Shown here: one piece after another, positions 1 to 25,744 of the stretch
Numbering within the stretch: position 1 is the stretch's first letter
Layout of the letters: every line of letters begins with the position of its first letter
Source: Balanoglossus misakiensis
Lineage: Eukaryota; Animalia; Hemichordata
NCBI GenBank assembly: GCA_040954595.2
Contig: CM082595.2
Coordinates: 1-64,000, forward strand
DNA: 64,000 nucleotides
Direction of reading: 5' to 3'
The notes under the pieces: model-generated
Databases searched by the model: none
What the model was told of the DNA's origin: nothing
The model's input: the letters and a program-made list of their open reading frames with translations, nothing else
Translations under genes and position numbers: made by a program

Positions 1-1765
1 ACCCTAACCCTAACCCTAACCCTAACCCTAACCCTAACCCTAACCCTAACCCTAACCCTAACCCTAACCCTAACCCTAACCCTAACCCTAACCCTAACCC
101 TAACCCTAACCCTAACCCTAACCCTAACCCTAACCCTAACCCTAACCCTAACCCTAACCCTAACCCTAACCCTAACCCTAACCCTAACCCTAACCCTAAC
201 CCTAACCCTAACCCTAACCCTAACCCTAACCCTAACCCTAACCCTAACCCTAACCCTAACCCTAACCCTAACCCTAACCCTAACCCTAACCCTAACCCTA
301 ACCCTAACCCTAACCCTAACCCTAACCCTAACCCTAACCCTAACCCTAACCCTAACCCTAACCCTAACCCTAACCCTAACCCTAACCCTAACCCTAACCC
401 TAACCCTAACCCTAACCCTAACCCTAACCCTAACCCTAACCCTAACCCTAACCCTAACCCTAACCCTAACCCTAACCCTAACCCTAACCCTAACCCTAAC
501 CCTAACCCTAACCCTAACCCTAACCCTAACCCTAACCCTAACCCTAACCCTAACCCTAACCCTAACCCCCCTAACCCTAACCCTAACCCTAACCCTAACC
601 CTAACCCTAACCCTAACCCTAACCCTAACCCTAACCCTAACCCTAACCCTAACCCTAACCCTAACCCTAACCCTAACCCTAACCCTAACCCTAACCCTAA
701 CCCTAACCCTAACCCTAACCCTAACCCTAACCCTAACCCTAACCCTAACCCTAACCCTAACCCTAACCCTAACCCTAACCCTAACCCTAACCCTAACCCT
801 AACCCTAACCCTAACCCTAACCCTAACCCTAACCCTAACCCTAACCCTAACCCTAACCCTAACCCTAACCCTAACCCTAACCCTAACCCTAACCCTAACC
901 CTAACCCTAACCCTAACCCTAACCCTAACCCTAACCCTAACCCTAACCCTAACCCTAACCCTAACCCTAACCCTAACCCTAACCCTAACCCTAACCCTAA
1001 CCCTAACCCTAACCCTAACCCTAACCCTAACCCTAACCCTAACCCTAACCCTAACCCTAACCCTAACCCTAACCCTAACCCTAACCCTAACCCTAACCCT
1101 AACCCTAACCCTAACCCTAACCCTAACCCTAACCCTAACCCAACCCAACCCAACCCCAACCCCAACCCCAACCCCAACCCCAACCCCAACCCTAACCCTA
1201 ACCCTAACCCTAACCCTAACCCTAACCCTAACCCTAACCCTAACCCTAACCCTAACCCTAACCCTAACCCTAACCCTAACCCTAACCCTAACCCTAACCC
1301 TAACCCTAACCCTAACCCTAACCCTAACCCTAACCCTAACCCTAACCCTAACCCTAACCCTAACCCTAACCCTAACCCTAACCCTAACCCTAACCCTAAC
1401 CCTAACCCTAACCCTAACCCTAACCCTAACCCTAACCCTAACCCTAACCCTAACCCTAACCCTAACCCTAACCCCAACCCCAACCCCAACCCCAACCCCA
1501 ACCCCAACCCCAACCCCAACCCCAACCCTAACCCTAACCCTAACCCTAACCCTAACCCTAACCCTAACCCTAACCCTAACCCTAACCCTAACCCTAACCC
1601 TAACCCTAACCCTAACCCTAACCCTAACCCTAACCCTAACCCTAACCCTAACCCTAACCCTAACCCTAACCCTAACCCTAACCCTAACCCTAACCCTAAC
1701 CCTAACCCTAACCCTAACCCTAACCCTAACCCTAACCCTAACCCTAACCCTAACCCTAACCCTAA
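1..1765 (-). repeat. Terminal telomere array (CCCTAA)n, i.e. TTAGGG on the minus strand
   Basis: Continuous CCCTAA hexamers from base 1; CCCCAA variant blocks at about 1139-1190 and 1473-1525; one C-run irregularity near 566. Confidence 0.98.
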
Positions 1766-2887
1766 TTAGGGTCCGACGGGCATTAGGGGACCTGAGATTT
1801 CGGGCTCTGACCCTACTGCCTTGCCAATGTTTTTTTTACCCCTCCTTTTGATACAATGTAGGTAAACGTGTAAACAACAACAACAAAAAATATCAACAAA
1901 AACAAGTTGACCCTTCCATGTTTTTTTAAGGTCAAGTCCCCCAATGCCCAACTTATGTCTGGTTTGGCCAAAAAAAGAGGGTTAGAGAAAATTGTTTGGA
2001 TTTATTTTGTTATCTTTTAGGTTGTTGTTATTGATTTTGGTCCCCTGTCTAACCCCAGCCTTTAAAAAAACCATTTTTAGAAAGGCCAAAAAAATGCCTT
2101 GGTGGGTATATGCAAGTTGCTCCAGACGGCAAGTCCAAATTGTGCATGGACGGATTTCTTGGTAGGTACTTTTAAATTTTACATAAACCATAACAAACTA
2201 TATATTTTCAGAAAGGTCTCGGCGAGTTCTATAACATACTAAAATTTGACCAACTTTGAACTTGACCTTGAAAAGTTATTGCGGAAAAACCTATTGAAAA
2301 AAACATACTTTTTAGGGTACGCGGTGTCACCCCCTTAATATAGTTGGAAACCACTGAAAATTACAGGATAGATTGATAATGAGTTGTTTTAACGTGGTGT
2401 GGTGAAAAAAAATTGAAATTCGAAGGTCAAGGTCAACTTCGCCATTGCTTATAGTTGTTGGTTTACCTATGTCGGATTTCATTATCCTTTGACCTTTGAC
2501 CTCGAAATTTGGTACACAAGTAGAGTGTCTATCTATAAACTCTTGACAAAAGTTACATTTAAATATTTTAACATAAAAGCACTTTTTTGACCAAAAAGCA
2601 AACTTCTGTAAATTAGCTGTAAATTAGCTGTTTTTTAATATACACTTTGCTTTTTTAAGATTATTTTTTTATTTTAAGCATTTCAAAGATGAAACTTTCC
2701 AGAAACCATCAGGAGATGTTCTAGAATATAAAAAAGTTGACACTTTTGAGATTGGACGCCATTAAGTATTCCAAATGTTGTTGCAAAATAGACTGATATA
2801 ATGCCCATAGACTTAACATGTATAAAAACAAAAGAATATTTTTTTTGGACACTTGGACATTAGAGACCCTATCCTAAAATGTAAAAT

Positions 2888-3732
2888 AAAGGAGCTTAAG
2901 AGCTAATTTTTCCAGGAATGATAGACATTTAAATTCTCTATTCTGGGGTACCTTAATATCTAAGAAATGTAGACAAGAAGTTATAAAAATATAATTATGA
3001 AACAAAATGTTTGTGCCCCATAGGCTTTACACTGTAGAAAACAGGGTGTCATAGGTAAAAAATTAGGAAAGTAAGAAAACATGTCATTTAAAGCTTGTAA
3101 TTTTCATAGACTGTTAAGAACATGTTGGCATACTACCTACATTTTTTTAAAGTTGTTACATGTACAGCAATGTCAGTAACTATGGATACAAACTAGGTAA
3201 TTCATAAACCTCATATAGAACTGTAACATCACTTTACTTTTGGCACACCTGTTTATTTATTATTAAAGATTTCACATTGAGTCTTCAATATGTTTTATAG
3301 GAATAGTTGGCAATCTCAAAACAGTTTACACTTTAAAGATAGACCCACTCCAAGTGTTACAGTAGTATTGCAAACATTGGCTAAAACTTACATATTTTCT
3401 GTGTGAAATTTATGAATTACCTAGTTTGTATCAATAGTTTACGGCATTACAGTACAGGTAACATTTTAGAAATAATGTAGGTAGTATCTCAACATGTTCT
3501 TAACAGTCTCTGAAAATTACAAGCTTTAAACAACATGTTTTCATACTTTACTAATTTTTTTACCTATGACACCCTGTTTTCTACAGTGTTAATCCTATGG
3601 GGCACAAACATATTGTTTCATAATTATATTTTTTATAACTTCCTGTTTGAATTTGAAAAACAACATTACCCCTACAGCAAAGAGAATAAAAAGGTGTATC
3701 TATTCTGAAAAAATTAGAACTTAAGCTTCTTT
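2888..3732. repeat. Internal long imperfect inverted repeat (arms about 2888-3208 and 3408-3732, ~200-bp spacer)
   Basis: e.g. GTTTGTGCCCCATAGG...ACACTGTAGAAAACAGGGTGTCATAGGTAAAAAATTAG in the left arm is mirrored by CTAATTTTTTTACCTATGACACCCTGTTTTCTACAGTGT...CCTATGGGGCACAAAC in the right arm. Confidence 0.85.
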
Positions 3733-6236
3733 TGAAAAGATTTTACAGCAATTTCTAAAACTTCAGTGATTCACCCTATACTTTAACATGCATGTAGACA
3801 TAAGATCCACTGTAACATCACTTTACTTTTGGCACACCTGTTTATTTATTCTTAAAGATTTCACATCGGGTCTTCAATATGTTTTAGAGTAATAATTGGC
3901 GATCTCAAAACAGCTTACACGTTAATGATAGACCCACTCCAAGTGTTACAGTAGTGTTGCAAACATTAGCTAAAACTAACATTTTCCCCAAAATCCCTAA
4001 GTAGCTAACCCTACACGCGAAAAAATACCATAACAAATTGTAATCGTTGGCTCTCTGATTTTATTTCTACAATTTTTGGAAAACGGTTTTCAGGGTTAAA
4101 GAGCCAAGATTCTAAGCTTTAAAACGATGTATTGGATTCCTAGATAATTTTTAGAATAAGCATCAAACGAAGCCTTTTATAAAATGTACTTGTCTGCCTT
4201 TTGCCGAAACCCGGAAGTGAGTGCAATTTACGATCGTAATAAATCGTAATCGTTGGCTCTCTGATTTCATTTCTACGATTTTTGGAAAACGGTTTTCATG
4301 GTTACTGAGACCAGAATCTTAGCTCTTGAACGATATATAACATGTGTATATATGTGCAAGATAATTCGTAGTACGAGACCAAGTTCGCATAGATGTCGTC
4401 GATCATTTTATATTTTCACTGTACAATGTCTATGGGCCCTTAGACCAATAAATAGGTATTTTGTTCATCCGCTCATAAAATTTAGAAAAAAGAAGCTACA
4501 ATCCTAGTTTTTTCAGAGTAAATAGATGAATATTATCGCTATCCTCCGGTATCTTCATATCAAATATATTCAAAGAGAAAGTCATAAAAAATATTTTTAG
4601 GATAAAACAGATCGATGCCCCATAGCTTAAACACAGGAAAAAAACATCAATTTACTTTTGGCACACCTATTAATTTATTCTTAAAGATTTCACATCGGGT
4701 CTTCAATATGTTTTAGAGTAATAGTTGGAGATCTCAAAACAGCTTACACTTTAAAGATGGACCCACTCAAAGTGTTACAGTATTCTTGCAAACATTACCT
4801 AGAAACAGTGATTCACCCTATACTTTAACATGCATGTAAACAAAGAATCATTGTATCACCAGATCGCCACGGATTTCGTGCGAGTGCTCCTTTAATTTCA
4901 GCATTTTTAGAGAAAGCTTATTACCGTTAGATAGCCTATATTATAAAGTATTGAACCATGTATAACATGTGTAGAAATGTGCGAGGAAATTCGTAGAATA
5001 CAACATGTTCGCCAGTTTGGCATGAAACCGGAAGTCAAATCGTAATAGCACAATTTTACGAGATCGGCAGCGATTTCGGGCGAGCGCTCGTTTAATTTCT
5101 GCAATCCGAGAAAACAATTATAGTGGTTAGAGACCCAATAATCTTAGCTCTTGAACGATGTATAACATGTGTATATATGTGCGAGATTATTCGTAGAACG
5201 AGAGCAAAATCGCATAGATGTCGTCGATCATTTTATATTTTCAATGTACAAGTCTATGCCCCATAGACATAACATGGCAATTTGTTCATCCACTCATAAA
5301 ATTTAGAAAAAAGAAGCTACAGTCCTAGTTTTTTCAGAGTAAATAGATAAAAATTATCTCTATCCTCTGGTATCTTCATATCAAATATATTCAAAGAGAA
5401 AGTCATAAAAAATGTTATTAGGATAAAACAGATCGGTGCCCCATAGCTTAAACACAGGAAAAAATATGTGTCATAGCTTTTTTTTAAAAAAAATATGAAA
5501 ACATAGGCTTTCATGCCTATTATTTTCAGAGCTTCTTAATGACATGACACAGGACTAGAAAAATAATTTTGAAACTTTTTCCTGCTCATTAATGTCAGAA
5601 ACTACAGGGTTGAAATAGGTCATTTATACCAGAATATTTCCTATACTTTAACATAGAAAACATCACTTTACTTTTGGCACACCTGTTAATTTATTCTTAA
5701 AGATTTCACATCGGGTCTTCAATATGTTTTAGAGTAATAGTTGGCGATATCAAAACAGGTTAAACTTTAAAGATAGACCCACTCAAAGTGTTACAGTAGT
5801 GTTGCAAACATTACCTAGAAACAGTGATTCACCCTATACTTTAACATGCATGTAAACAAAGAATCATTGTATCACCAGATCGCCACGGATTTCGTGCGAG
5901 TGCTCCTTTAATTTCAGCATTTTTAGAGAAAGCTTATTACCGTTAGATAGCCTATATTCTAAGGTATTGAACCATGTATAACATGTGTAGAAATGTGCGA
6001 GGAAATTCGTAGAATACAACATGTTCGCCAGTTTGGCATGAAACCGGAAGTCAAATCGTAATTGCACAATTTTACGAGATCGGCAGCGATTTCGGGCGAG
6101 CGCTCGTTTAATTTCTGCTTTTCGAGAAAACAATTATAGCGGTTAGAGACCCAATAATCTTAGCTCTTGAACGATGTATAACATGTGTATATATGTGCGA
6201 GATTATTCGTAGAACGAGAGCAAAATCGCATAGATG
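3220..6236 (+). repeat. Internal direct-repeat modules of the telomere-embedded element
   Basis: A ~165-bp module (ACATCACTTTACTTTTGGCACACC...AAGTGTTACAGTAGT...GCAAACATT) recurs at about 3220, 3809, 4644 and 5658; 4644-5220 is duplicated at 5658-6236; 4297-4643 is duplicated at 5123-5463. Confidence 0.85.
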
Positions 6237-6600
6237 AGGTGTGAAAAAAACAATTTTTAAAAAAGGTCATTTTCAACAAATTATATGTTTTGTTTGATAG
6301 CCTATAAAAAAATAAGTTGAGTGTGGTTGAGTATGATTTTTTAATTGTTGTAAAAGGAGAAGATTTGCTCTCTAAAACTGTTTTCAGAATGAAAATCGGA
6401 CATCATTAAGCAGTCAAAAAAAATTATTGAAAAAGTATGGAAAATAAATATTTTCAAATAAACTTTTTTGTATCAAAAAAAATAATAAACTAAAGTTAAC
6501 TAGCTAAAGGTATGTATTAATGATAGATGTATGAATTGAAACCAAATAAGGGACTTACCCACTTGACCTTGACCTAACCACGCCTAAAAAAAAAAAATTC

Positions 6601-6825
6601 GGGTCCCCTAATGCCCAACTTATGACGTAAGTTGGGCATTGTGAGACTTGATATTGGGCATTCGGGGACTTGAAGTTGGGCATTCGGGGACTTGAAGTTG
6701 GGCATTGAGGGACTTGAAGTTGGGCATTAGGGGACTCAGGTCCCTCAATGCCCAACTTCAGGTCCCCGAATGCCCAACTTCAGGTCCCTCAATGCCCAAC
6801 TTCAGGTCCCCGAATGCCCACCGGA
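6601..6825. repeat. Palindromic array of 21-22-bp subterminal motifs
   Basis: One reverse copy at ~6603, five forward copies of GTTGGGCATTNGGGGACTTGAA-like units (6630-6736), then four inverted CAGGTCCCNNAATGCCCAACTT units (6737-6820), the last forming the TIR. Confidence 0.9.
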
Positions 6826-6831
6826 CCCTAA

Positions 6832-7398
6832 CCCTAACCCTAACCCTAACCCTAACCCTAACCCTAACCCTAACCCTAACCCCTAACCCCTAACCCTAAC
6901 CCTAACCCTAACCCTAACCCTAACCCTAACCCTAACCCCTAACCCTAACCCTAACCCTAACCCTAACCCTAACCCCAACCCCAACCCCAACCCCAACCCC
7001 AACCCCAACCCTAACCCTAACCCTAACCCTAACCCTAACCCTAACCCTAACCCTAACCCTAACCCTAACCCTAACCCTAACCCCTAACCCTAACCCTAAC
7101 CCTAACCCTAACCCTAACCCTAACCCTAACCCTAACCCTAACCCTAACCCCTAACCCCTAACCCTAACCCTAACCCTAACCCTAACCCTAACCCTAACCC
7201 TAACCCTAACCCTAACCCCTAACCCTAACCCCTAACCCTAACCCTAACCCTAACCCTAACCCTAACCCTAACCCTAACCCTAACCCTAACCCTAACCCTA
7301 ACCCCTAACCCTAACCCTAACCCTAACCCTAACCCTAACCCTAACCCTAACCCTAACCCTAACCCTAACCCTAACCCTAACCCTAACCCTAACCCTAA
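6832..7398 (-). repeat. Inner (interstitial) telomere array, same orientation as the terminal one
   Basis: ~570 bp of CCCTAA with several CCCCTAA variants and a CCCCAA block at about 6974-7008. Confidence 0.97.
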
Positions 7399-10300
7399 CG
7401 GCGCGGTGAATCTGGGCCAAGTTGCCGGCGACTTCCTGTCGTAACGGCGCGGTGAATCTGGGCCAAGTTGCCGGCGACTTCCTGTCGTAACGGCGCGGTG
7501 AATCTGGGCCAAGTTGATGGCGACTTCCGGTCGTAACGGCGTGAATCTTGGCCAAGTTGCCGCCGACTTCCGGTCGTAACGGCGAGTTGAATCTTGGCCA
7601 AGTTGCCGGCGACTTCCGGTCGGAACGGCGCAGTGAATCCGGGCCAAGTTGCGGCGACTTCCGGTCGTAAAGGCGTGGTGAATCTGGGCCAAGTTGCCGG
7701 CGACTTCCTGTCATAACGGCGCGGTGAATCTGGGCCAAGTTGCCGGCGACTTCCTGTGGTAACGGCGCGGTGAATCTGGGCCAAGTTGATGGCGACTTCC
7801 GGTCGTAACGGCGCAGTGAATCCGGGCCAAGTTGCGGCGACTTCCTGTCGTAACGGCGTGGTGAATCCAGGCCAAGTTGCCGGCGACTTCCGGTCGTAAC
7901 GGCGCGGTGAATCTGGGCCAAGTTGCCGGAGACTTCCTGTGAATTCGGGCCAAGTTGCCGGCGACTTCCGGTCGTAACGGCGCGGTGAATCTGGGCCAAG
8001 TTGCCGGCGACTTCCGGTCGTAACGGCGCGGTGAATCTGGGCCTAGTTGCCGGCAACTTCCGGTCGTAACGGCGCAAGAATCTGGGCCAAGTTGCCGGAG
8101 ACTTCCTGTGAATCCAGGCCAAGTTGCCGGCGACTTCCGGTCGTAACGGCACGGTGAATCTGGGCCAAGTTGCCGGCGACTTCCGGTCGTAACGGCGCGG
8201 TGAATCTGGGCCAAGTTGCCGGCGACTTCCGGTCGTAAAGGCGCAAGAATCTGGGCCAAGTTGCCGGAGACTTCCTGTGAATCCGGGCCAAGTTGCGGCG
8301 ACTTCCGGTCGTAACGGTGCGGTAAATCAGGGCCAAGTTGCCGGCGACTTCCGGTGGTAACGGCGCGGTGATTCTGGGCCAAGTTGCCGGCGACTTCCGG
8401 TGGTAACGGCGCGGTGAATCTGGGCCAAGTTGCCGGCGACTTCCGGTCGTAACGGCGCAAGAATCTGGGCCAAGTTGCCGGAGACTTCCTGTGAATCCGG
8501 GCCAAGTTGCGGCGACTTCCGGTCGTAACGGCGCTGTGAATCTGGGCCAAGTTGCCGGCGACTTCCGGTCGTAACGGCGCAAGAATCTGGGCGAAGTTGC
8601 CGGCGACTTCCGGTGGTAACGGCGCGGTGAATCTGGGCCAAGTTGCCGGCGACTTCCGGTCGTAACGGCGCAAGAATCTGGGCCAAGTTGCCGGAGACTT
8701 CCTCTGAATCCGGGCCAAGTTGCGGCGACTTCCGGTCGTAACAGCGCGGTGAATCAGGGCCAAGTTGCCGGCGACTTCCGGTGGTAACGGCGCGGTGAAT
8801 CTGGGCCATTTTGCCGGCGACTTCCGGTCGTAACGGCGCAAGAATCTGGGCCAAGTTGCCGGGGACTTCCTGTGAATCCGGGCCAAGTTGCGGCAACTTC
8901 CGGTCGTAACGGCGCGGTGAATCAGGGCCAAGTTGCCGGCGACTTCCGGTGGTAACGGCGCGGTGAATCTGGGCCAAGTTGCCGGCGACTTCCTGTCGTA
9001 ACGGCGCGGTGAATCTGGGCCAAGTTGCCGGCGACTTCCTGTCGTAACGGCGCGGTGAATCTGGGCCAAGTTGATGGCGACTTCCGGTCGTAACGGCGTG
9101 AATCTTGGCCAAGTTGCCGCCGACTTCCGGTCGTAACGGCGAGTTGAATCTTGGCCAAGTTGCCGGCGACTTCCGGTCGGAACGGCGCAGTGAATCCGGG
9201 CCAAGTTGCGGCGACTTCCGGTCGTAAAGGCGTGGTGAATCTGGGCCAAGTTGCCGGCGACTTCCTGTCGTAACGGCGCGGTGAATCTGGGCCAAGTTGC
9301 CGGCGACTTCCTGTGGTAACGGCGCGGTGAATCTGGGCCAAGTTGATGGCGACTTCCGGTCGTAACGGCGCAGTGAATCCGGGCCAAGTTGCGGCGACTT
9401 CCTGTCGTAACGGCGTGGTGAATCCAGGCCAAGTTGCCGGCGACTTCCGGTCGTAACGGCGCGGTGAATCTGGGCCAAGTTGCCGGAGACTTCCTGTCGT
9501 AACGGCGCGGTGAATCTGGGCCAAGTTGCCGGCGACTTCCTGTGGTAACGGCGCGGTGAATCTGGGCCAAGTTGATGGCGACTTCCGGTCGTAACGGCGC
9601 AGTGAATCCGGGCCAAGTTGCGGCGACTTCCTGTCGTAACGGCGTGGTGAATCCAGGCCAAGTTGCCGGCGACTTCCGGTCGTAACGGCGCGGTGAATCT
9701 GGGCCAAGTTGCCGGAGACTTCCTTTGAACCCGGGCCAAGTTGCCGGCGACTTCCGGTCGTAACGGCGCGGTGAATCTGGGCCTAGTTGCCGGCAACTTC
9801 CGGTCGTAACGGCGCAAGAATCTGGGCCAAGTTGCCGGAGACTTCCTGTGAATCCAGGCCAAGTTGCCGGCGACTTCCGGTCGTAACGGCACGGTGAATC
9901 TGGGCCAAGTTGCCGGCGACTTCCGGTCGTAACGGCGCGGTGAATCTGGTCCAAGTTGCCGGCGACTTCCGGTCGTAAAGGCGCAAGAATCTGGGCCAAG
10001 TTGCCGGAGACTTCCTGTGAATCCGGGCCAAGTTGCGGCGACTTCCGGTCGTAACGGTGCGGTAAATCAGGGCCAAGTTGCCGGCGACTTCCGGTGGTAA
10101 CGGCGCGGTGATTCTGGGCCAAGTTGCCGGCGACTTCCGGTGGTAACGGCGCGGTGAATCTGGGCCAAGTTGCCGGCGACTTCCGGTCGTAACGGCGCGG
10201 TGAATCTGGGCCAAGTTGCCGGCGACTTCCGGTCGTAAAGGCGCAAGAATCTGGGCCAAGTTGCCGGAGACTTCCTGTGAATCCGGGCCAAGTTGCGGCG

Positions 10301-13300
10301 ACTTCCGGTCGTAACGGTGCTGTGAATCTGGGCCAAGTTGCCGGCGACTTCCGGTCGTAACGGCGCAAGAATCTGGGCCAAGTTGCCGGCGACTTCCTGT
10401 GGTAACGGCGCGGTGAATCTGGGCCAAGTTGATGGCGACTTCCGGTCGTAACGGCGTGAATCTGGGCCAAGTTGCCGGCGACTTCCGGTCGTAACGGTGC
10501 GGTGAATCTGGGCCAAGTTGCCGGCGACTTCCTGTCGTAACGGCGAGGTGAATCTTGGCCAAGTTGCCGGCGACTTCCGGTCGTAACGGCGTGAATCTGG
10601 GCCAAGTTGCCGGCGACTTCCGGTCGTAACGGCGCGGTGAATCTGGGCCAAGTTGCCGGCGACTTCCTGTCGTAACGGCGAGGTGAATCTTGGCCAAGTT
10701 GCCGGCGACTTCCGGTCGTAACGGCGTGAATCTGGGCCAAGTTGCCGGCGACTTCCGATCGTAACGGCGCGGTGAATCTGGGCCAAGTTGCCGGCGACTT
10801 CCGGTCGTAACGGCGAGGTGAATCTTGGCCATGTTGCCGGCGACTTCCGGTCGGAACGGCGCAGTGAATCCGGGCCAAGTTGCGGTGACTTCCGGTCGTA
10901 ACGGCGTGGTGAATCCAGGCCAAGTTGCCGGCGACTTCCGGTCGTAACGGCGCGGTGAATCTGGGCCAAGTTGCCGGAGACTTCCTGTGAATCCGGGCCA
11001 AGTTGCCGGCGACTTCCGGTCGTAACGGCGCGGTGAATCTGGGCCTAGTTGCCGGCAACTTCCGGTCGTAACGGCGCAAGAATCTGGGCCAAGTTGCCGG
11101 AGACTTCCTGTGAATCCAGGCCAAGTTGCCGGCGACTTCCGGTCGTAACGGCACGGTGAATCTGGGCCAAGTTGCCGGCGACTTCCGGTCGTAACGGCGC
11201 GGTGAATCTGGGCCAAGTTGCCGGCGACTTCCGGTCGTAACGGCGCAAGAATCTGGGCCAAGTTGCCGGAGACTTCCTGTGAATCCGGGCCAAGTTGCGG
11301 CGACTTCCGGTCGTAACGGTGCGGTAAATCAGGGCCAAGTTGCCGGCGACTTCCTGTCGTAACGGCGCGGTGAATCTGGGCCAAGTTGATGGCGACTTCC
11401 GGTCGTAACCGCGTGAATCTTGGCCAAGTTGCCGCCGACTTCCGGTCGTAACGGCGAGTTGAATCTTGGCCAAGTTGCCGGCGACTTCCGGTCGGAACGG
11501 CGCAGTGAATCCGGGCCAAGTTGCGGCGACTTCCGGTCGTAAAGGCGTGGTGAATCTGGGCCAAGTTGCCGGCGACTTCCTGTCGTAACGGCGCGGTGAA
11601 TCTGGGCCAAGTTGCCGGCGACTTCCTGTGGTAACGGCGCGGTGAATCTGGGCCAAGTTGATGGCGACTTCCGGTCGTAACGGCGCAGTGAATCCGGGCC
11701 AAGTTGCGGCGACTTCCTGTCGTAACGGCGTGGTGAATCCAGGCCAAGTTGCCGGCGACTTCCGGTCGTAACGGCGCGGTGAATCTGGGCCAAGTTGCCG
11801 GAGACTTCCTGTCGTAACGGCGCGGTGAATCTGGGCCAAGTTGCCGGCGACTTCCTGTGGTAACGGCGCGGTGAATCTGGGCCAAGTTGATGGCGACTTC
11901 CGGTCGTAACGGCGCAGTGAATCCGGGCCAAGTTGCGGCGACTTCCTGTCGTAACGGCGCGGTGAATCTGGGCCAAGTTGCCGGAGACTTCCTGTGAACC
12001 CGGGCCAAGTTGCCGGCGACTTCCGGTCGTAACGGCGCGGTGAATCTGGGCCTAGTTGCCGGCAACTTCCGGTCGTAACGGCGCAAGAATCTGGGCCAAG
12101 TTGCCGGAGACTTCCTGTGAATCCAGGCCAAGTTGCCGGCGACTTCCGGTCGTAACGGCACGGTGAATCTGGGCCAAGTTGCCGGCGACTTCCGGTCGTA
12201 ACGGCGCGGTGAATCTGGTCCAAGTTGCCGGCGACTTCCGGTCGTAAAGGCGCAAGAATCTGGGCCAAGTTGCCGGAGACTTCCTGTGAATCCGGGCCAA
12301 GTTGCGGCGACTTCCGGTCGTAACGGTGCGGTAAATCAGGGCCAAGTTGCCGGCGACTTCCGGTGGTAACGGCGCGGTGATTCTGGGCCAAGTTGCCGGC
12401 GACTTCCGGTGGTAACGGCGCGGTGAATCTGGGCCAAGTTGCCGGCGACTTCCGGTCGTAACGGCGCGGTGAATCTGGGCCAAGTTGCCGGCGACTTCCG
12501 GTCGTAAAGGCGCAAGAATCTGGGCCAAGTTGCCGGAGACTTCCTGTGAATCCGGGCCAAGTTGCGGCGACTTCCGGTCGTAACGGCGCTGTGAATCTGG
12601 GCCAAGTTGCCGGCGACTTCCGGTCGTAACGGCGCAAGAATCTGGGCCAAGTTGCCGGCGACTTCCTGTGGTAACGGCGCGGTGAATCTGGGCCAAGTTG
12701 ATGGCGACTTCCGGTCGTAACGGCGTGAATCTGGGCCAAGTTGCCGGCGACTTCCGGTCGTAACGGTGCGGTGAATCTGGGCCAAGTTGCCGGCGACTTC
12801 CTGTCGTAACGGCGAGGTGAATCTTGGCCAAGTTGCCGGCGACTTCCGGTCGTAACGGCGTGAATCTGGGCCAAGTTGCCGGCGACTTCCGGTCGTAACG
12901 GCGCGGTGAATCTGGGCCAAGTTGCCGGCGACTTCCTGTCGTAACGGCGAGGTGAATCTTGGCCAAGTTGCCGGCGACTTCCGGTCGTAACGGCGTGAAT
13001 CTGGGCCAAGTTGCCGGCGACTTCCGATCGTAACGGCGCGGTGAATCTGGGCCAAGTTGCCGGCGACTTCCGGTCGTAACGGCGAGGTGAATCTTGGCCA
13101 TGTTGCCGGCGACTTCCGGTCGGAACGGCGCAGTGAATCCGGGCCAAGTTGCGGTGACTTCCGGTCGTAACGGCGTGGTGAATCCAGGCCAAGTTGCCGG
13201 CGACTTCCGGTCGTAACGGCGCGGTGAATCTGGGCCAAGTTGCCGGAGACTTCCTGTGAATCCGGGCCAAGTTGCCGGCGACTTCCGGTCGTAACGGCGC

Positions 13301-16300
13301 GGTGAATCTGGGCCTAGTTGCCGGCAACTTCCGGTCGTAACGGCGCAAGAATCTGGGCCAAGTTGCCGGAGACTTCCTGTGAATCCAGGCCAAGTTGCCG
13401 GCGACTTCCGGTCGTAACGGCACGGTGAATCTGGGCCAAGTTGCCGGCGACTTCCGGTCGTAACGGCGCGGTGAATCTGGGCCAAGTTGCCGGCGACTTC
13501 CGGTCGTAACGGCGCAAGAATCTGGGCCAAGTTGCCGGAGACTTCCTGTGAATCCGGGCCAAGTTGCGGCGACTTCCGGTCGTAACGGTGCGGTAAATCA
13601 GGGCCAAGTTGCCGGCGACTTCCTGTCGTAACGGCGCGGTGAATCTGGGCCAAGTTGATGGCGACTTCCGGTCGTAACCGCGTGAATCTTGGCCAAGTTG
13701 CCGCCGACTTCCGGTCGTAACGGCGAGTTGAATCTTGGCCAAGTTGCCGGCGACTTCCGGTCGGAACGGCGCAGTGAATCCGGGCCAAGTTGCGGCGACT
13801 TCCGGTCGTAAAGGCGTGGTGAATCTGGGCCAAGTTGCCGGCGACTTCCTGTCGTAACGGCGCGGTGAATCTGGGCCAAGTTGCCGGCGACTTCCTGTGG
13901 TAACGGCGCGGTGAATCTGGGCCAAGTTGATGGCGACTTCCGGTCGTAACGGCGCAGTGAATCCGGGCCAAGTTGCGGCGACTTCCTGTCGTAACGGCGT
14001 GGTGAATCCAGGCCAAGTTGCCGGCGACTTCCGGTCGTAACGGCGCGGTGAATCTGGGCCAAGTTGCCGGAGACTTCCTGTCGTAACGGCGCGGTGAATC
14101 TGGGCCAAGTTGCCGGCGACTTCCTGTGGTAACGGCGCGGTGAATCTGGGCCAAGTTGATGGCGACTTCCGGTCGTAACGGCGCAGTGAATCCGGGCCAA
14201 GTTGCGGCGACTTCCTGTCGTAACGGCGCGGTGAATCTGGGCCAAGTTGCCGGAGACTTCCTGTGAACCCGGGCCAAGTTGCCGGCGACTTCCGGTCGTA
14301 ACGGCGCGGTGAATCTGGGCCTAGTTGCCGGCAACTTCCGGTCGTAACGGCGCAAGAATCTGGGCCAAGTTGCCGGAGACTTCCTGTGAATCCAGGCCAA
14401 GTTGCCGGCGACTTCCGGTCGTAACGGCACGGTGAATCTGGGCCAAGTTGCCGGCGACTTCCGGTCGTAACGGCGCGGTGAATCTGGTCCAAGTTGCCGG
14501 CGACTTCCGGTCGTAAAGGCGCAAGAATCTGGGCCAAGTTGCCGGAGACTTCCTGTGAATCCGGGCCAAGTTGCGGCGACTTCCGGTCGTAACGGTGCGG
14601 TAAATCAGGGCCAAGTTGCCGGCGACTTCCGGTGGTAACGGCGCGGTGATTCTGGGCCAAGTTGCCGGCGACTTCCGGTGGTAACGGCGCGGTGAATCTG
14701 GGCCAAGTTGCCGGCGACTTCCGGTCGTAACGGCGCGGTGAATCTGGGCCAAGTTGCCGGCGACTTCCGGTCGTAAAGGCGCAAGAATCTGGGCCAAGTT
14801 GCCGGAGACTTCCTGTGAATCCGGGCCAAGTTGCGGCGACTTCCGGTCGTAACGGCGCTGTGAATCTGGGCCAAGTTGCCGGCGACTTCCGGTCGTAACG
14901 GCGCAAGAATCTGGGCCAAGTTGCCGGCGACTTCCTGTGGTAACGGCGCGGTGAATCTGGGCCAAGTTGATGGCGACTTCCGGTCGTAACGGCGTGAATC
15001 TGGGCCAAGTTGCCGGCGACTTCCGGTCGTAACGGTGCGGTGAATCTGGGCCAAGTTGCCGGCGACTTCCTGTCGTAACGGCGAGGTGAATCTTGGCCAA
15101 GTTGCCGGCGACTTCCGGTCGTAACGGCGTGAATCTGGGCCAAGTTGCCGGCGACTTCCGGTCGTAACGGCGCGGTGAATCTGGGCCAAGTTGCCGGCGA
15201 CTTCCTGTCGTAACGGCGAGGTGAATCTTGGCCAAGTTGCCGGCGACTTCCGGTCGTAACGGCGTGAATCTGGGCCAAGTTGCCGGCGACTTCCGATCGT
15301 AACGGCGCGGTGAATCTGGGCCAAGTTGCCGGCGACTTCCGGTCGTAACGGCGAGGTGAATCTTGGCCATGTTGCCGGCGACTTCCGGTCGGAACGGCGC
15401 AGTGAATCCGGGCCAAGTTGCGGTGACTTCCGGTCGTAACGGCGTGGTGAATCCAGGCCAAGTTGCCGGCGACTTCCGGTCGTAACGGTGCGGTGAATCT
15501 GGGCCAAGTTGCCGGAGACTTCCTGTGAATCCGGGCCAAGTTGCCGGCGACTTCCGGTCGTAACGGCGCGGTGAATCTGGGCCTAGTTGCCGGCAACTTC
15601 CGGTCGTAACGGCGCAAGAATCTGGGCCAAGTTGCCGGAGACTTCCTGTGAATCCAGGCCAAGTTGCCGGCGACTTCCGGTCGTAACGGCACGGTGAATC
15701 TGGGCCAAGTTGCCGGCGACTTCCGGTCGTAACGGCGCGGTGAATCTGGGCCAAGTTGCCGGCGACTTCCGGTCGTAACGGCGCAAGAATCTGGGCCAAG
15801 TTGCCGGAGACTTCCTGTGAATCCGGGCCAAGTTGCGGCGACTTCCGGTCGTAACGGTGCGGTAAATCAGGGCCAAGTTGCCGGCGACTTCCGGTGGTAA
15901 CGGCGCGGTGATTCTGGGCCAAGTTGCCGGCGACTTCCGGTGGTAACGGCGCGGTGAATCTGGGCCAAGTTGCCGGCGACTTCCGGTCGTAACGGCGCAA
16001 GAATCTGGGCCAAGTTGCCGGAGACTTCCTGTGAATCCGGGCCAAGTTGCGGCGACTTCCGGTCGTAACGGCGCTGTGAATCTGGGCCAAGTTGCCGGCG
16101 ACTTCCGGTGGTAACGGCGCGGTGAATCTGGGCCAAGTTGCCGGCGACTTCCTGTCGTAACGGCGCGGTGAATCTGGGCCAAGTTGCCGGTGACTTCCGG
16201 TCGTAACGGCGTGGTGAATCCAGGCCAAGTTGCCGGCGACTTCCGGTCGTAACGGCGCGGTGAATCTGGGCCAAGTTGCCGGAGACTTCCTGTGAATCCG

Positions 16301-17020
16301 GGCCAAGTTGCCGGCGACTTCCGGTCGTAACGGCGCGGTGAATCTGGGCCTAGTTGCCGGCAACTTCCGGTCGTAACGGCGCAAGAATCTGGGCCAAGTT
16401 GCCGGAGACTTCCTGTGAATCCAGGCCAAGTTGCCGGCGACTTCCGGTCGTAACGGCACGGTGAATCTGGGCCAAGTTGCCGGCGACTTCCGGTCGTAAC
16501 GGCGCGGTGAATCTGGGCCAAGTTGCCGGCGACTTCCGGTCGTAACGGCGCAAGAATCTGTGCCAAGTTGCCGGAGACTTCCTGTGAATCCGGGCCAAGT
16601 TGCGGCGACTTCCGGTCGTAACGGTGCGGTAAATCAGGGCCAAGTTGCCGGCGACTTCCGGTGGTAACGGCGCGGTGATTCTGGGCCAAGTTGCCGGCGA
16701 CTTCCGGTGGTAACGGCGCGGTGAATCTGGGCCAAGTTGCCGGCGACTTCCGGTCGTAACGGCGCAAGAATCTGGGCCAAGTTGCCGGAGACTTCCTGTG
16801 AATCCGGGCCAAGTTGCGGCGACTTCCGGTCGTAACGGCGCTGTGAATCTGGGCCAAGTTGCCGGCGACTTCCGGTCGTAACGGCGCAAGAATCTGGGCC
16901 AAGTTGCCGGCGACTTCCGGTGGTAACGGCGCGGTGAATCTGGGCCAAGTTGCCGGCGATTTCCTGTGGTAACGGCGCGGTGAATCTGGGCCAAGTTGAT
17001 GGCGACTTCCTGTGAATCCG
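7396..17020. repeat. 46-bp GC/CpG-rich subtelomeric satellite with higher-order repeat
   Basis: Consensus TAACGGCGCGGTGAATCTGGGCCAAGTTGCCGGCGACTTCCGGTCG; 43-45-bp and 32-bp deletion variants; roughly 210-220 units; near-identical blocks recur every 2269 bp (ORF track 9783/12052/14321 and 11045/13314/15583). Confidence 0.97.
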
Positions 17021-20000
17021 AGCAGACTGGAGGGGGACTGGAGCAGGCTGGAGGGGGGACTGGAGCAGACTGGAGGGGCACTGGAGCCGACTGGAGGGGG
17101 ACTGGAGCAGACTGGAGGGGCCCTGGATCAGACTGGAGGGGGACTGGAGCAGACTGGAGGGGGACTGGAGGGGTACTGGAGCAGACTGGAGGGGCACTGG
17201 AGCAGACTGGAGGGGGACTGGAGCAGACTGGAGGGGCACTGGAGCAGACTGGAGGGGGAGTGGAGCATGCTGGAGGGGGAGTGGAGCAGACTGAAGGGGG
17301 AGTGGAGCAGACTTGAGGGGGACTGGAGCATGCTGGAGGGGGAGTGGAGCAGACTTGAGGGGGACTGGAGCATGCTGGAGGGGGAGTGGAGCAGACTTGA
17401 GGGGGACTGGAGCATGCTGGAGGGGGAGTGGAGCAGACTGGAGGGGGACTGGAGCATGCTGGAGGGTGAGTGGAGCAGACTGGAGGGGGACTGGAGCATG
17501 CTGGAGGGGGAGTGGAGCAGACTGGAGGGGGACTGGAGCAGACTGGAGGGGGAGTGGAGCAGACTGGAGGGGGACTGGAGCAGACTGGAGGGGGAGTGGA
17601 GCAGAGTGGAGGGGGACTGGAGCAGACTGGAGGGGGACTGGAGCAGACTGGAGGGGGACTGGAGCATGCTGGAGGGGACTGGAGCTTGCTGGAGGGGGAC
17701 TGGAGCATGCTGGAGGGGGACTGGAGCAGACTGGGGGGGGACTGGAGCATGCTGGAGGGGGACTGGAGCAGACTGGAGGGGGACTGGAGCAGACTGGAGG
17801 GGGAGTGGAGCATGCTGGAAGGGGATTGGAGCAGACTGGAGGGGGAGTGGAGCATGCTGGAAGGGGACTGGAGCAGACTGGAGGGGGAGTGGAGCATGCT
17901 GGAGGGGGACTGGAGCAGACTGGAGGTTGAGTGGAGCAGACTGTAGGGGGACTGGAGCAGGCTGGAGGGGGACTGGAGCATGCTGGAGGGTGAGTGGAGC
18001 AGACTGGAGGGGGACTGGAGCATGCTGGAGGGGGAGTGGAGCAGACTGGAGGGGGACTGGAGCATGCTGGAGGGGGAGTGGAGCAGACTGGAGGGGGACT
18101 GGAGCATGCTGGAGGGGGGCTGGAGCAGACTGGAGCATGCTGGATGGGGACTGGAGAAAACTGGAGGGGGACTGGAGCAGACTGGAGGGGGACTGGAGCA
18201 GACTGTAGGGGGACTGGAGCAGACTGGAGGGGGACTGGAGCAGACTATAGGGGAACTGGAGCAGACTGTAGGGGGACTGGAGCAGGCTGGAGGGGGACTG
18301 GAGCAGACTGGAGGGTGAGTGGAGCAGACTGGAGCAGACTGGAGGGGGGACTGGAGCAGACTGGAGGGGAACTGGAGCAGACTGTAGGGGGACTGGAGCA
18401 GGCTGGAGGGGGACTGGAGCAGACTGGAGGGTGAGTGGAGCAGACTGGAGGGGGACTGGAGCATGCTGGAGGGGGACTGGAGCAGACTGGAGGGGGACTG
18501 GAGCAGACTGGAGCAGACTGGAGGGGGGACTGGAGCAGACTGGAGGGGAACTGGAGCAGACTGTAGGGGCACTGGAGCAGACTGGAGCAGACTGGAGGGG
18601 GGACTGGAGCAGACTGGAGGGGGACTGGAGCATGCTGGAGGGGGACTGGAGCAGACTGGAGGGGGACTGGAGCAGACTGGAGCAGACTGGAGGGGGGACT
18701 GGAGCAGACTGGAGGGGAACTGGAGCAGACTGTAGGGGGACTGGAGCAGGCTGGAGGGGGACTGGAGCAGACTGGAGGGGGACTGGAGCATGCTGGAGGG
18801 TGAGTGGAGCAGACTGGAGGGGGACTGGAGCATGCTGGAGGGGGACTGGAGCAGACTGGAGGGGGACTGGAGCAGACTGGAGCAGACTGGAGGGGGACTG
18901 GAGCAGACTGGAGGGGGACTGGAGCAGACTGGAGGGGCACTGGAGCAGACTGGAGGGGCACTGGAGCAGACTGGAGGGGGACTGGAGCAGACTGGAGGGT
19001 GAGTGGAGCAGACTGGAGGGGGACTGGAGCAGACTGGAGGGGGACTGGAGCAGACTGGAGCAGACTGGAGGGGGACTGGAGCAGACTGGAGGGGGACTGG
19101 AGCAGACTGGAGGGGCACTGGAGCAGACTGGAGGGGCACTGGAGCAGACTGGAGGGGCACTGGAGCAGACTGGAGGGGCACTGGAGCAGGCTGGAGGGGG
19201 ACTGGAGCAGGCTGGAGCAGACTGGAGCATGCTGGATGGGGACTGGAGCAGACTCGAGGGGGACTGGAGCATGCTGGAGGGTGAGTGGAGCAGACTGGAG
19301 GGGGACTGGAGCATGCTGGAGGGGGACTGGAGCAGACTGGAGGGGGACTGGAGCAGACTGGAGCAGACTGGAGGGGGACTGGAGCAGACTGGAGGGGGAC
19401 TGGAGCAGACTGGAGGGGCACTGGAGCAGACTGGAGGGGCACTGGAGCAGACTGGAGGGGCACTGGAGCAGACTGGAGGGGAACTGGAGCAGACTGTAGG
19501 GGCACTGGAGCATGCTGGAGGGGGACTGGAGCAGACTGGAGGGGGACTGGAGCAGACTGGAGCAGACTGGAGGGGGGACTGGAGCAGACTGGAGGGGAAC
19601 TGGAGCAGACTGTATGGGGGACTGGAGCAGGCTGGAGGGGGACTGGAGCAGACTGGAGGGTGAGTGGAGCAGACTGGAGGGGGACTGGAGCATGCTGGAG
19701 GGGGACTGGAGCAGACTGGAGGGGGACTGGAGCAGACTGGAGCAGACTGGAGGGGGGACTGGAGCAGACTGGAGGGGAACTGGAGCAGACTGTATGGGGG
19801 ACTGGAGCAGGCTGGAGGGGGACTGGAGCAGACTGGAGGGTGAGTGGAGCAGACTGGAGGGGGACTGGAGCATGCTGGAGGGGGACTGGAGCAGACTGGA
19901 GGGGCACTGGAGCATGCTGGAGGGGGACTGGAGCAGACTGGAGGGGCACTGGAGCAGACTGGAGGGGCACTGGAGCAGACTGGAGGGGCACTGGAGCAGA

Positions 20001-20411
20001 CTGGAGGGGCACTGGAGCAGGCTGGAGGGGCACTGGAGCAGGCTGGAGGGGCACTGGAGCAGACTGGAGGGGCACTGGAGCAGACTGGAGGGGCACTGGA
20101 GCAGGCTGGAGGGGCACTGGAGCAGGCTGGAGGGGCACTGGAGCAGGCTGGAGGGGCTCTGGAGCAGGCTGGAGGGGCACTGGAGCAGGCTGGAGGGGCA
20201 CTGGAGCAGGCTGGAGGGGCACTGGAGCAGACTGGAGGCGGACTGGAGCAGACTGGAGGGGGACTGGAGCAGACTGGAGGGGGACTGGAGCAGACTGGAG
20301 GGGGACTGGAGCAGACTGGAGGGGGACTGGAGCAGACTGGAGGGGGACTGGAGCAGACTGGAGGGGGACTGGCGCAGACTGGAGGGGGACTGGAGCAGGC
20401 TGGAGGGGGAC
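17021..20411. repeat. 21-bp G-rich minisatellite
   Basis: Consensus ACTGGAGCAGACTGGAGGGGG (two related 10/11-bp half-units), about 160 units with CATG, CAGG, GGGGC and GGTGAG variants. Confidence 0.97.
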
Positions 20412-21290
20412 ATACATTACATACATTCATAAATGCATACATAGAGAACAATTTTGTACCCATACAATTCCATTTATTTAATTTTCCTGACCTTCACAAT
20501 CAGGTTTTGGGAATGACAGCTAATTTAAATTGAATTACAATACAATACTTTAACATATTTTCATCTGTGAACTTTTAACTGGTGAACAAATTGGAGACCA
20601 TTATTAAACAAAGTTTCCCCGAGCCTGTTTACCATTCCAGCCAAAGTATTAGTTGTTAGTGTTAGTGTTAGGGTTAGGGTTAGTGTTAGGGTTAGAGTTA
20701 GGGTTAGGGGTAGGGTTAGGTTTAGTGTTGAAATTAACAAATGGCTGAAATGGCACAAACAATTTCATAAATTGAATCAAATTCCTTTGACTGCAAAATT
20801 CACTGAACAAAGTTTGCTCTGTGCAAACTTGTTATTCTAAGAAATACTGTATCTATGGACATTTAGGCTACAGTTAAATAATTAATATTGTGTCCTAATC
20901 TGAATCAATCTTTATCATAACACATAACCAGTGAGCTAAAGGGAACATGTAAGGAAAGTCAATGTCATAGTCCCCACTGGATCAATAGATTAAACAGCAA
21001 CATTCTCTCTTTTTGATCTTTTAGAGATTAAATTCGTTTGATACAGAATGGTGATTTTAAAAATCATTATTTTTTATGCAAGTATTCAATGTATACTTGA
21101 CAACATTCAAAGCTCAAAAAGAGAGATTGTGTCACTTTATTAGAAAACTGGACGGAAGACAATCTATAAGTTTTCTCTTCATTCTCATTATAAACTCTTA
21201 AAATGCCGACTGAAAATCTATGTCTTCTCTTTATTTTGCATTCAGACTTCATCTGCCAAGATGCAAGTATTTTATTGGGTTGCTGGTAGA
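20412..21290 (+). repeat. Diverged segmental duplicate, copy A (copy B at about 25930-27080)
   Basis: Shared anchors in the same order: CATAGAGAACAATT, TTTTCCTGACCTTCAC..TCAGGTTTTGGGAA, TCCAGCCAAAGTATTAGTTGTTA, TGGCTGAAATGGCACAAACA, TATGGACATTTAGGCTACAGTTAAATAA, ATTCTCATTATAAACTCTTAAAATGC. Confidence 0.85.
20652..20730 (+). repeat. Degenerate interstitial TTAGGG tract, inverted relative to the terminal telomere
   Basis: TTAGTGTTAGTGTTAGGGTTAGGGTTAGTGTTAGGGTTAGAGTTAGGGTTAGGGGTAGGGTTAGG. Confidence 0.85.
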
Positions 21291-24200
21291 CCAAGTCCTT
21301 GTCCATTTCTACCATCATCATCATTTGGAAAATCACCAGTCTTCACACTTCAGCTTGAGCTAAGAAAGTAACAGAAAAAAAAATAGATTCGCTTTTAATT
21401 AATGAAATGATCACACGTTTTATAGCATTGATTCATTCGGCTTAAGTTAAATTTGGAAGTCTTCCAATACTATATACACTCATAAAATGTTGACTACAAA
21501 CCTTCATATTTTCTTCATTTGACAACCAGATATGTTAATCTGCCATCATGCAAATAATTTATGGGGTGAGTGCAATACCAAGTCCTTGTCCACTTCTACC
21601 ATTGGCAATATCTGGATAAAAACATCAGTCTGCACTCTTCGCCATATTCTAACAAAAAAACAGAAAAATTTTATCCATGATTAATGAACAAATTGGCGAA
21701 AGATTGTATAAATTGATTCAATGAGTTAAATTTGGATGTGTTCCAATACTATATACACTCTTAAAAGGTTGAGTACAAACCTTTATATTTTCTTCATTTG
21801 ACAACCAGATATGTTCATCTGCCCTTTATTTGACATCCAAATATCTCCATCTGCCATCATGCAAGTAGTTTATTGGGTGACTGGAAGACCATGTACTTGT
21901 CCACTTCTACCTATTTCAACATTCAGATACACAACATCAGCCTCCACTCTTCACCATATTCTAACAAAACAACAGAAAAAAAAATATTCATGATCAATGA
22001 ACAAAGTGGTGACATATTTTATGAAATTGATTCAATGAGTTAAGTTTGGATTTGTTTCAACACTATATACACTCTTAAAATGTTGACTGCAAACCTGTAT
22101 GTTTTCTTTATTTGACATCCAAATATCTTCATCTGCCATCATGCAAGTAGTTTATTGGGTGACTGGGAAACCAAGTCCTTGTCCACTTCTACCAATGGCA
22201 ACATTCAGATACACAACATCAGCCTGCACTCTTTGACATATTCTAACAAAACAACAGAAAAAAATGATTCATGATCAATGAACAAAGTGGTGACATATAT
22301 TATAAAATTGATTCAATGAGTTAAGTTTGAATTTGTTCCAATACTATATACACTTGTTGACTGCAAACCTGTACGTTTTCTTCATTTGACATCCATATAT
22401 CTTCATCTGCCATCATGCAAGTTGTTAATTGGCTGACTGCAAGACCGAGTCCTTGTCCACTTCTACCGTTGGCACCATTTAGAAATTAAACATCATTCTT
22501 CATGCTTGAACTTGCTTCATCTGCCATCATGCAAGTACTTTATTGGCTGACTGGAAGACCAAGTCCTTGTCCACTTCTACCATTGGCAACATTCAGATAC
22601 ACAACATCAGCCTGCACTCTTCGCCATATTCTAACAAAACAACAGAAAAAAAAATTATTCATGATCAATGAACAAAGTCAAGACATAGTTTATAAAATTG
22701 ATTCAATGCGTTAAGCTTGGATTTGTTCCAACACTATATACACTCTTAAAATTTTGACTGCATACCTGTATGTTTTCTTTATTTGACATCCAAATATCTT
22801 CATCTGCCATCATGCAAGTAGTTTATTGGGTGACTGGGAAACCATGTCCTTGTCCACTTCTACCAATGGCAACATTCAGATACACAACATCAGCCTGCAC
22901 TCTTCGCCATATTCTAACAAAACAACAGAAAAAAAATTATTCATGATCAATGAACAAAGTGGTGACATATATTATTAAATTGATTCAATGAGTTAAGCTT
23001 GGATTTGTTCCAATACTATATACACTCTTAAAATATTGACTGCAAACCTTTATGTTTTCTTAATTTGACATCCAAATATCTTCATCAACCATCATGCAAG
23101 TAGTTTATTGGGTGACTGGGAAACCAAGTCCTTGTCTACTTCTACCAATGGCAACATTCAGATACACAACATCAGCCTGCACTCTTCGACATATTCTAAC
23201 AAAACAACAGACAAAAAATGATTCATGATCAATGAACAAAGTGGTGACATATATTATAACATTGATTCAATGAGTTAAGTTTGAATTTGTTCCAATACTA
23301 TATACACTTGTTGACTGCAAACCTGTACGTTTTCTTCATTTGACATCCATATATCTTCATCTGCCATCATGCAAGTTGTTAATTGGCTGACTGCAAGACC
23401 AAGTCCTTGTCCACTTCTACCGTTGGCATCATTTAGAAATTAAACATCATTCTTCATGCTTGAACTTGCTTCATCTGCCATCATGCAAGTACTTTATTGG
23501 CTGACTGGAAGACCAAGTCCTTGTCCACTTCTACCATTGGCAACATTCAGATACACAACATCAGCCTGCACTCTTCGCCATATTCTAACAAAACAACAGA
23601 AAAAAAATTATTCATGATCAATGAACAAAGTGGTGACATATATTATTAAATTGATTCAATGAGTTAAGCTTGGATTTGTTCCAACACTATATACACTCTT
23701 AAAATATTGACTGCAAACCTTTATGTTTTCTTAATTTGACATCCAAATATCTTCATCAGCCATCATGCAAGTAGTTTATTGGGTGACTGGGAAACCAAGT
23801 CCTTGTCCACTTCTACCAATGGCAACATTCAGATACACAACATCAGCCTGCACTCTTCGACATATTCTAACAAAACAACAGACAAAAAATGATTCATGAT
23901 CAATGAACAAAGTGGTGACATATATTATAAAATTGATTCAATGAGTTAAGTTTGAATTTGTTCCAATACTATATACACTTGTTGACTGCAAACCTGTACG
24001 TTTTCTTCATTTGACATCCATATATCTTCATCTGCCATCATGCAAGTTGTTAATTGGCTGACTGCAAGACCAAGTCCTTGTCCACTTCTACCGTTGGCAC
24101 CATTTAGAAATTAAAGATCATTCTTCATGCTTGAACTTGCTTCATCTGCCATCATGCAAGTACTTTATTGGCTGACTGGAAGACCAAGTCCTTGTCCACT

Positions 24201-25290: not shown

Positions 25291-25744
25291 TGCTTAACTT
25301 AAAGCAATTATACTTCAATTGTTAGTTTCTGTTATATTATAGCACACAAGTAAACAATTACCAAAAATTTGCTAAACTTATCTACCATCACGGTTGGAAA
25401 GCTTCTCAACTATTGTAGACATTGGGAGAACTTCATGACAAGATAAAATTCGGACAAGGATACATTAGGGATTCACATACACATACATTACATAGATGCA
25501 TACATTACATACTAGACTTGCTCCAAGTCTATGGTCTGTGTAGGGAACGTGTCGAGCTTGGTCGACGCTACCCGAAACCACAAGCTCAGTCGCAAATTCG
25601 AAACTCGCCTCACTACCAAAAACACGCTTAAGGCAAGCATGCATGCAAAAAGTATTGAAATTATTTATTAAGACAAAAAACCACCGAAAACACAAAAAGT
25701 ATTGAGATTTAAAAATCACCAAGCGACTAGTGGGCTAGTCTAAT

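Follow-up and report, generated by a model that had tools for sequence, protein, structure and literature searches.

What brought a kilobase-scale segment with transposon-like ends into the interior of a telomere? The question arises from a 64,000-nucleotide stretch of the hemichordate Balanoglossus misakiensis (GenBank assembly GCA_040954595.2, contig CM082595.2, positions 1 to 64,000 of the forward strand; hereafter "the window"). Near its start, an AT-rich element of 5,066 bp (1766-6831) lies between two co-oriented CCCTAA arrays. An earlier note on this DNA had described the element as a non-coding segment bounded by terminal inverted repeats (TIRs) that interrupts the telomere, and had proposed that it could be a non-autonomous DNA transposon that targets telomeres. 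We tentatively favor a different history, in which a non-autonomous hAT-like element was inserted once in the inner telomere and was then copied, together with its flanks, by telomere recombination. The two accounts can both be partly true.

The description of the segment was borne out: the coordinates are exact, and the TIRs are identical at 27 of 30 positions. Their first 10 bases match perfectly and the similarity stops at 30 bp. When the telomere hexamer is left aside, the identity is 21/24, a value reached by 3 of 200,000 random pairs of 24-mers from the element. Eighteen of the TIR bases are a copy of a 22-bp subterminal motif, which has 12 matches in the window (0.15 expected), all at the element's ends. 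The layout of the motifs is asymmetric: the left end has two copies, one of which lies within the TIR, and the right end has an array of ten, in both orientations, that forms a long hairpin when folded (z = -16.4). This combination of TIRs and asymmetric arrays of subterminal motifs is how transposase-bound ends are laid out (PMC3260210 and PMC10368747; for these papers, as for PMC4700185, PMC13085455, PMC8869645, PMC3212892 and PMC10045372 below, our statements refer to the accessible portion of the text).

No coding signal was evident. The longest stop-to-stop frame in the element has 98 amino acids (aa); over 200 shuffles the longest frame averaged 91.6 aa, and 30.5% of the shuffles gave one of 98 or more. 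In a Pfam scan of 13 of the 29 element frames of at least 50 aa, no match reached the cut-off, and neither a reverse-transcriptase remnant nor a transposase was found in the element. Rfam gave only sub-threshold hairpin matches, none at gathering score; the microRNA matches among them were rejected, all being below the gathering score and reflecting the hairpin of the 22-bp motif. Duplicated modules, 67-97% alike, make up 68% of the element, and one module of ~160 bp occurs four times in its interior. With TIRs, subterminal motifs and no coding capacity, the anatomy of a non-autonomous TIR element is supported. The region 2880-3747 is a fold-back with ~350-bp arms around a ~160-bp module, either a nested miniature inverted-repeat transposable element or an inverted duplication.

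To which kind of transposon such an element could belong depends on where it ends, and we considered all parses in which the flanks differ at no more than one position. Taken literally, the ends are TTAGGG..CCCTAA, which fit a target-site duplication (TSD) of 0, 6 or 12 bp and need no mutation. When the ends are shifted by one base (1767/6830), they become TAGGG..CCCTA and the 8-bp flanks match at 7 of 8 positions; when shifted by three bases, they become GGG..CCC, flanked by TTA/TAA or TA/TA. The length of the TSD is nearly uninformative because the flank is periodic. Termini resembling the (C/T)AGGG of hAT elements are matched only under the TAGGG..CCCTA parse, and the 2 left and 10 right motifs correspond in placement to the hAT-type subterminal repeats found within ~200 bp of both ends, although the motif is longer than in Ac or Hermes. 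A candidate for the 8-bp TSD of hAT elements matches at 7/8, with its mismatch at the junction base and in a periodic flank; in the majority contig described below, this base may be among the at most two unlisted differences. We give modest preference to the hAT parse, without classifying the element as hAT. The earlier assertion that any TSD must be 0 or a multiple of 6 bp is valid for the literal ends but not for TAGGG..CCCTA with its 8-bp pair. Similarly, a reading of the ends as telomere units is possible under the literal parse, but the likeness may be a coincidence of hAT-type TAGGG ends.

Other assignments were tried and rejected. Harbinger elements follow a TWA target rule, and Polintons carry AG-type end sequences. 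The resemblance to PIF/Harbinger suggested earlier is not supported, as the TTA and TAA flanking GGG..CCC do not form a direct duplication. Academ has a TSD of 3-4 bp, which none of the parses matches. Telomerase healing at the left end leaves the 7/8 mismatch in place. Zator has a 3-bp TSD (PMC10045372), and a 3-bp direct TSD adjoining GG..CC ends is not matched here (TTA versus TAA). IS3EU combines TA..TA termini with a 6-bp TSD (PMC10045372), and with TA..TA ends no 6-bp flank pair of the element matches; in the literature consulted, 6-bp TSDs also go with AG-type Polintons and with Dada. Cryptons have 4-6-bp terminal direct repeats and no TIRs (PMC3212892); a 6-bp direct repeat is trivially present at the element, but so are 30-bp TIRs. 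The analogy with the ciliate elements TBE and Tel-1, also drawn in the earlier note, does not hold for polarity. Ends added by telomerase would have a G-rich 3' end (PMC13085455), whereas the 3' ends of the element, CCCTAA, are C-rich in every parse and therefore not telomerase-made, unlike those in the Tel-1 model.

Further copies are suggested by read-derived contigs from three runs (X1, X2 and X3), all from one sample that is possibly the source of the assembly itself. These contigs behave as unbranched paths of 31-letter words, as is apparent from an overlap in which the second record starts 30 bases before the first one ends. The share of the element's words held as contigs was 0.50 and 0.40 in two runs and 0.03 in the third (X3). 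In X1, a search over 1742-4640 found a contig of the unique left arm (2176-2662) at depth 755, with 5 differences in 487 nucleotides (nt), as well as several variant contigs at ~94-112 and the inverted module at 245-271; the depth at 1922-2044 was 507. The fold-back described above stood at roughly one-third to one-half of the depth of the left arm. A joint from 3213 to 3819 was rejected as a deletion, since both of its sides are copies of one module. The copies appear numerous, 1-2.5% diverged and structurally variable; no second copy was found within the window itself.

One X1 contig of 172 nt crosses the left junction. It extends from 38 nt before the searched stretch, 1754-2050, through all 12 flank bases to 1887, with one difference at 1809 and two further, unlisted ones close to the contig ends; the chance that a random flank would match 10 of the 12 bases is 8e-5. 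Its depth is 468 and that of the body 507-545, a ratio of ~0.9. Words that touch the flank have on average 0.6-0.8 of the depth of a body at 507-545, and 0.38 of that of a body at 600. None of the four loose ends of X1 contigs in this stretch falls at 1766 or in the TIR, and no non-telomeric left flank is listed among the contigs over it. Contig depth is not copy number; taking a depth of 47-110 as one copy would give about 4-11 left ends, and CCCTAA repeats of one register and orientation appear to lie directly against most of them. Coverage in X2 varies strongly, and the absence of a contig over the left junction in that run proves nothing; X3 is uninformative. Junctions with pure telomere may be hidden in the contigs through graph cleaning or a human filter.

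These contigs also bear on whether a misjoin in the assembly stitched a dispersed transposon into the telomere by way of its TTAGGG-like ends. The spanning contig covers the left junction only, and no contig in the runs searched spans the whole element. Such an artifact is nevertheless very improbable, given the near-body depth at which the left junction is crossed, the lack of any alternative flank among those listed, and the organization of the two arrays, which are co-oriented and both contain CCCCAA variant runs. In the distal array these runs lie at 1139-1189 and 1472-1525; variant units are commoner proximally (15/93 in 6832-7399) than distally (19/294). A misjoin, a majority of copies at random non-telomeric sites and a single-copy state had all been named in the earlier note as outcomes that would speak against its proposal. 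The contig at depth 468 disfavors the first at the left junction, no other left flank is listed that would point to the second, and the apparently multicopy family runs counter to the third. What stands of the proposal is the TIR anatomy, the apparent multiplicity of copies and the left ends, most of which appear flanked by telomere in one register; independent insertion of the copies, their placement at several chromosome ends and a transposase partner are hypothetical.

The flank of the spanning contig offers a clue to how the copies multiplied. The contig carries 50 nt of flank, and this flank is not pure repeat, because 20 distinct 31-mers are needed and a pure repeat has 6. In the window, by comparison, the flank is pure for ~240 bp; there are therefore at least two left contexts. 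If the body is at 507, the non-pure flank has a depth of at least 245, which suggests that it is common to several copies. By analogy with TALT1 of Caenorhabditis elegans, such sharing would mean copying together with the flank, or tandem arrays. We regard the shared flank as modest and fragile evidence.

The history that we tentatively favor would have begun with an element that had its present TIRs and asymmetric subterminal motif arrays, which are observed, and no coding capacity. A transposase made elsewhere would have bound the TIRs and the 22-bp motifs and inserted the element, with ends TAGGG..CCCTA and an 8-bp duplication, into the inner telomere, with ~570 bp separating it from the subtelomere. 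A single subsequent change, in the base adjoining the left end, would then make the ends look like whole telomere units. The flanking telomere tracts could subsequently have served as homology for copying, as in TALT1 or yeast Y', yielding the several left ends, most in the same register and orientation, that contig depth suggests. The copies would thus inherit one junction, and unequal exchange would vary the internal modules.

Several observations weigh against this history. Known hAT subterminal repeats are 4-6 bp long and the motif here is 22 bp. The 8-bp TSD is imperfect, while no mutation is required if the ends are the literal TTAGGG..CCCTAA and the duplication is of 0 or 6 bp, and for a random insertion the in-register right junction is a coincidence of about 1 in 6. 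Dispersed copies would be expected of an ordinary donor family, and the contigs over the left TIR give no sign of any. At a body depth of 545, the non-pure part of the flank could be as low as ~26 and could represent a single copy. A simple head-to-tail tandem junction, which we rejected, predicts 47 or 53 nt of flank and not 50. Finally, all of the read-derived contigs come from the one sample that may also have yielded the assembly.

A relative of the element may be represented by an 884-nt contig (depth 156.9 in X2 and 46.8 in X1) that matches only two motif blocks, corresponding to 1778-1795 and 1932-1955 of the window and laid out like the inverted pair at 6599-6650. The loose end of the contig agrees at 13 of 15 positions with the minus strand of 6569-6583. 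Because a match of this quality turns up in the window for 15 of 100 shuffles, it is the position and not the score that supports the likeness. The arrangement suggests a second, low-copy family with the same putative binding motif, the contig being a candidate for the end of a sister or an autonomous family. Searches elsewhere gave matches that we treat as chance: the TIR pattern had 17 matches in metagenome contigs, none with a telomere tract or the motif, and the 22-bp motif had one match in viral contigs, a single copy inside a phage gene. The tandem-motif pattern had no match in prokaryote genomes or in viral contigs.

The diverged relative with the same subterminal layout also fits an account in which a transposase acting in trans inserted TIR elements repeatedly into (TTAGGG)n, in one phase and orientation, with ends that are either literal, with a 6-bp duplication or none, or of hAT type. 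We consider this close rival a real possibility, though short of probable. The register is exact at the left and the right junction without any mutation, telomere repeats appear to flank most left ends with no other flank listed, dispersed siblings are lacking, and the pure flank of the window and the non-pure flank of the contig make two contexts in one register. Internal modules are down to 71% identity while the outermost 10 bp match perfectly, which suggests that the ends were kept functional, and further pure-telomere junctions could be invisible in the contigs for the reasons given above. Precedents exist in Pokey, CryptonV and Dada (PMC8869645) and in telomere-inserted Helitrons (PMC13085455). 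On the other side, no transposase or autonomous copy was seen, the single visible junction contig has a non-pure and probably shared flank, and common descent equally predicts a fixed register and orientation. In addition, no superfamily with TT..AA ends, TIRs and a 6-bp TSD was found in the accessible literature that we consulted, and the TA..TA parse of IS3EU fails. The stricter form of this account, a TIR family that homes to (TTAGGG)n, has telomere units as its ends and is a DNA counterpart of TRAS/SART, is possible but somewhat doubtful; its transposase would perhaps lie behind the diverged relative.

Athena elements are added at chromosome termini, and a non-autonomous element could have arrived in a similar way if a CCCUAA-ended RNA annealed to the G-overhang, was reverse transcribed and was then capped by telomerase. 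The polarity fits, as the 3' CCCTAA points toward the centromere; no TSD is needed, and the single orientation is explained. Contig depth increases in the inward direction (468, 507, 755), a trend that 5' truncation would produce, but distal erosion gives the same gradient. Such retro-addition leaves unexplained why each end has a 30-bp TIR carrying the motif at an identical offset, as well as the precise left end shared among copies. Together with the absence of a reverse-transcriptase remnant and of any ribozyme family at E<=1 in the Rfam search of the element, this makes it improbable.

Table 1. Coordinates of the element, its parts and the adjoining telomere arrays in the window
Feature	Position	Strand	Detail
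Distal (CCCTAA)n telomere array	1..1765	+	pure for ~240 bp adjoining the element
Candidate left copy of 8-bp target duplication (hAT parse)	1759..1766	+	single difference from right copy, in the base adjoining the element
Left TIR, 30 bp	1766..1795	+	22-bp motif copied in positions 13-30
Unique left arm	1796..2871	.	one inner motif copy, 1932-1953 (minus strand)
Modular non-coding interior	2872..6236	.	
Inverted arms	2880-3226/3388-3747		82% over blastn piece
Direct duplication	4285-4643/5110-5464		89%
Direct duplication (580 bp)	4641-5220/5657-6236		97%
Unique right arm	6237..6609	.	
Right subterminal array	6599..6823	.	22-bp motif present ten times (1 minus, 5 plus, 4 minus)
Right TIR, 30 bp	6802..6831	-	
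Candidate right copy of 8-bp target duplication (hAT parse)	6831..6838	+	
Proximal (CCCTAA)n array	6832..7399	+	followed by 46-bp satellite

Beyond the proximal array lies a 9.6-kb GC-rich subtelomeric satellite (7396-17020) of 46-bp units, with 32-bp variant units and a higher-order structure; its row pattern in Tandem Repeats Finder repeats at ~2,270-bp intervals. It directly joins a 21-bp strand-skewed satellite (17020-20411) that is G-rich on the plus strand, opposite to the telomere skew. A short degenerate GTTAGG tract of 12.5 units (20655-20729) is oriented opposite to the terminal array. It is followed by a tandem array of related 282-, 114- and 384-bp units (21513-25300) and by a microsatellite inverted repeat (25745-26604), in which (TACA)n and (ATGT)n face each other ~480 bp apart. 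Several tandem, exon-split genes for S8 (subtilisin/proteinase K-like) proteases occupy 31622-52672 on the plus strand. Among their exons lies a 173-aa frame on the minus strand (31942-32463) without a Pfam match, which by eye we take to resemble the N-terminus of a retroelement gag. Two more minus-strand exons were seen: an 825-aa low-complexity exon with no Pfam match (54273-56750) and a rhodopsin-family G protein-coupled receptor exon (61224-62168; 7tm_1, E 3.5e-35), for which no homologue at E<=0.001 was found among 4,906 candidates. Taken by themselves, the receptor and the exon-split S8 proteases point to an animal host.

The telomere-specific elements known from animals are retroelements, and there are few DNA transposons with a specific target (Pokey, CryptonV and Dada). 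In searches of the accessible literature aimed at TIR elements inserted in telomeres, we found none for an animal; a catalogued relative could exist unseen. If the copies jumped one by one, a telomere-homing TIR family in an animal would be apparently undescribed, and its homing to TTAGGG would extend the range of target classes by a new one, with a transposase of safe-harbor specificity. Under the more ordinary reading, a single insertion spread by recombination, the element would be a natural block like Y' or TALT built from a transposon in the telomere of an animal, and would show how inner telomere DNA is exchanged between ends.

Among DNA transposons, the element is most readily set beside hAT elements such as maize Ds and Ds-like elements and Hermes, with which, under the TAGGG..CCCTA parse, it has in common TAGGG-type termini and a pair of 8-bp flanks (matching at 7/8 in this case), besides imperfect TIRs, subterminal repeats in an asymmetric arrangement and a filler interior. 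The ends of maize Ac are (C/T)AGGGATGAAA, with TSDs of 8 bp and with subterminal repeats (PMC3260210); in Hermes, the subterminal repeats are asymmetric (PMC10368747). Unlike in these elements, the motif is 22 bp and not 4-6 bp, the TSD is imperfect, no transposase was seen, and the element is apparently confined to telomeres; its 8-mer fits one of the two fixed bases in the nTnnnnAn preference of Hermes. Pokey, CryptonV and Dada, listed as target-specific in a 2022 overview (PMC8869645), are likewise DNA transposons confined to a multicopy target, but their targets are ribosomal DNA, microsatellites and small-RNA genes, and none is listed for telomere repeats in the accessible portion of that overview. 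The TIRs set the element apart from Cryptons, which have none (PMC3212892). The ciliate elements TBE1 and Tel-1 are also TIR elements with telomere sequence at their tips, but there the repeats are element-owned or thought to be telomerase-added (PMC13085455), whereas here the single unit has the opposite polarity and the element lies inside a true telomere. Paramecium telomeric Helitrons, reported in 2026, have telomere flanks of the same polarity and an absolute orientation bias (PMC13085455). They resemble the element in both respects, in a non-coding interior full of duplications and in ORF-less derivatives; they are rolling-circle elements of a ciliate germline with distinct left and right termini, whereas the element has symmetric TIRs and resides in an animal.

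The way in which the copies may have multiplied invites a second comparison. Like TALT1 and yeast Y', the latter of which encodes a helicase, the element is a kilobase-scale block between co-oriented telomere tracts that would have been multiplied via telomere-repeat homology. TALT1 of C. elegans forms tandem copies duplicated through such homology (PMC9066243), and Y' forms tandem arrays in survivors (PMC4700185). Neither is described as TIR-bounded in the accessible parts of these papers, whereas the element has transposon-type ends and motif arrays.

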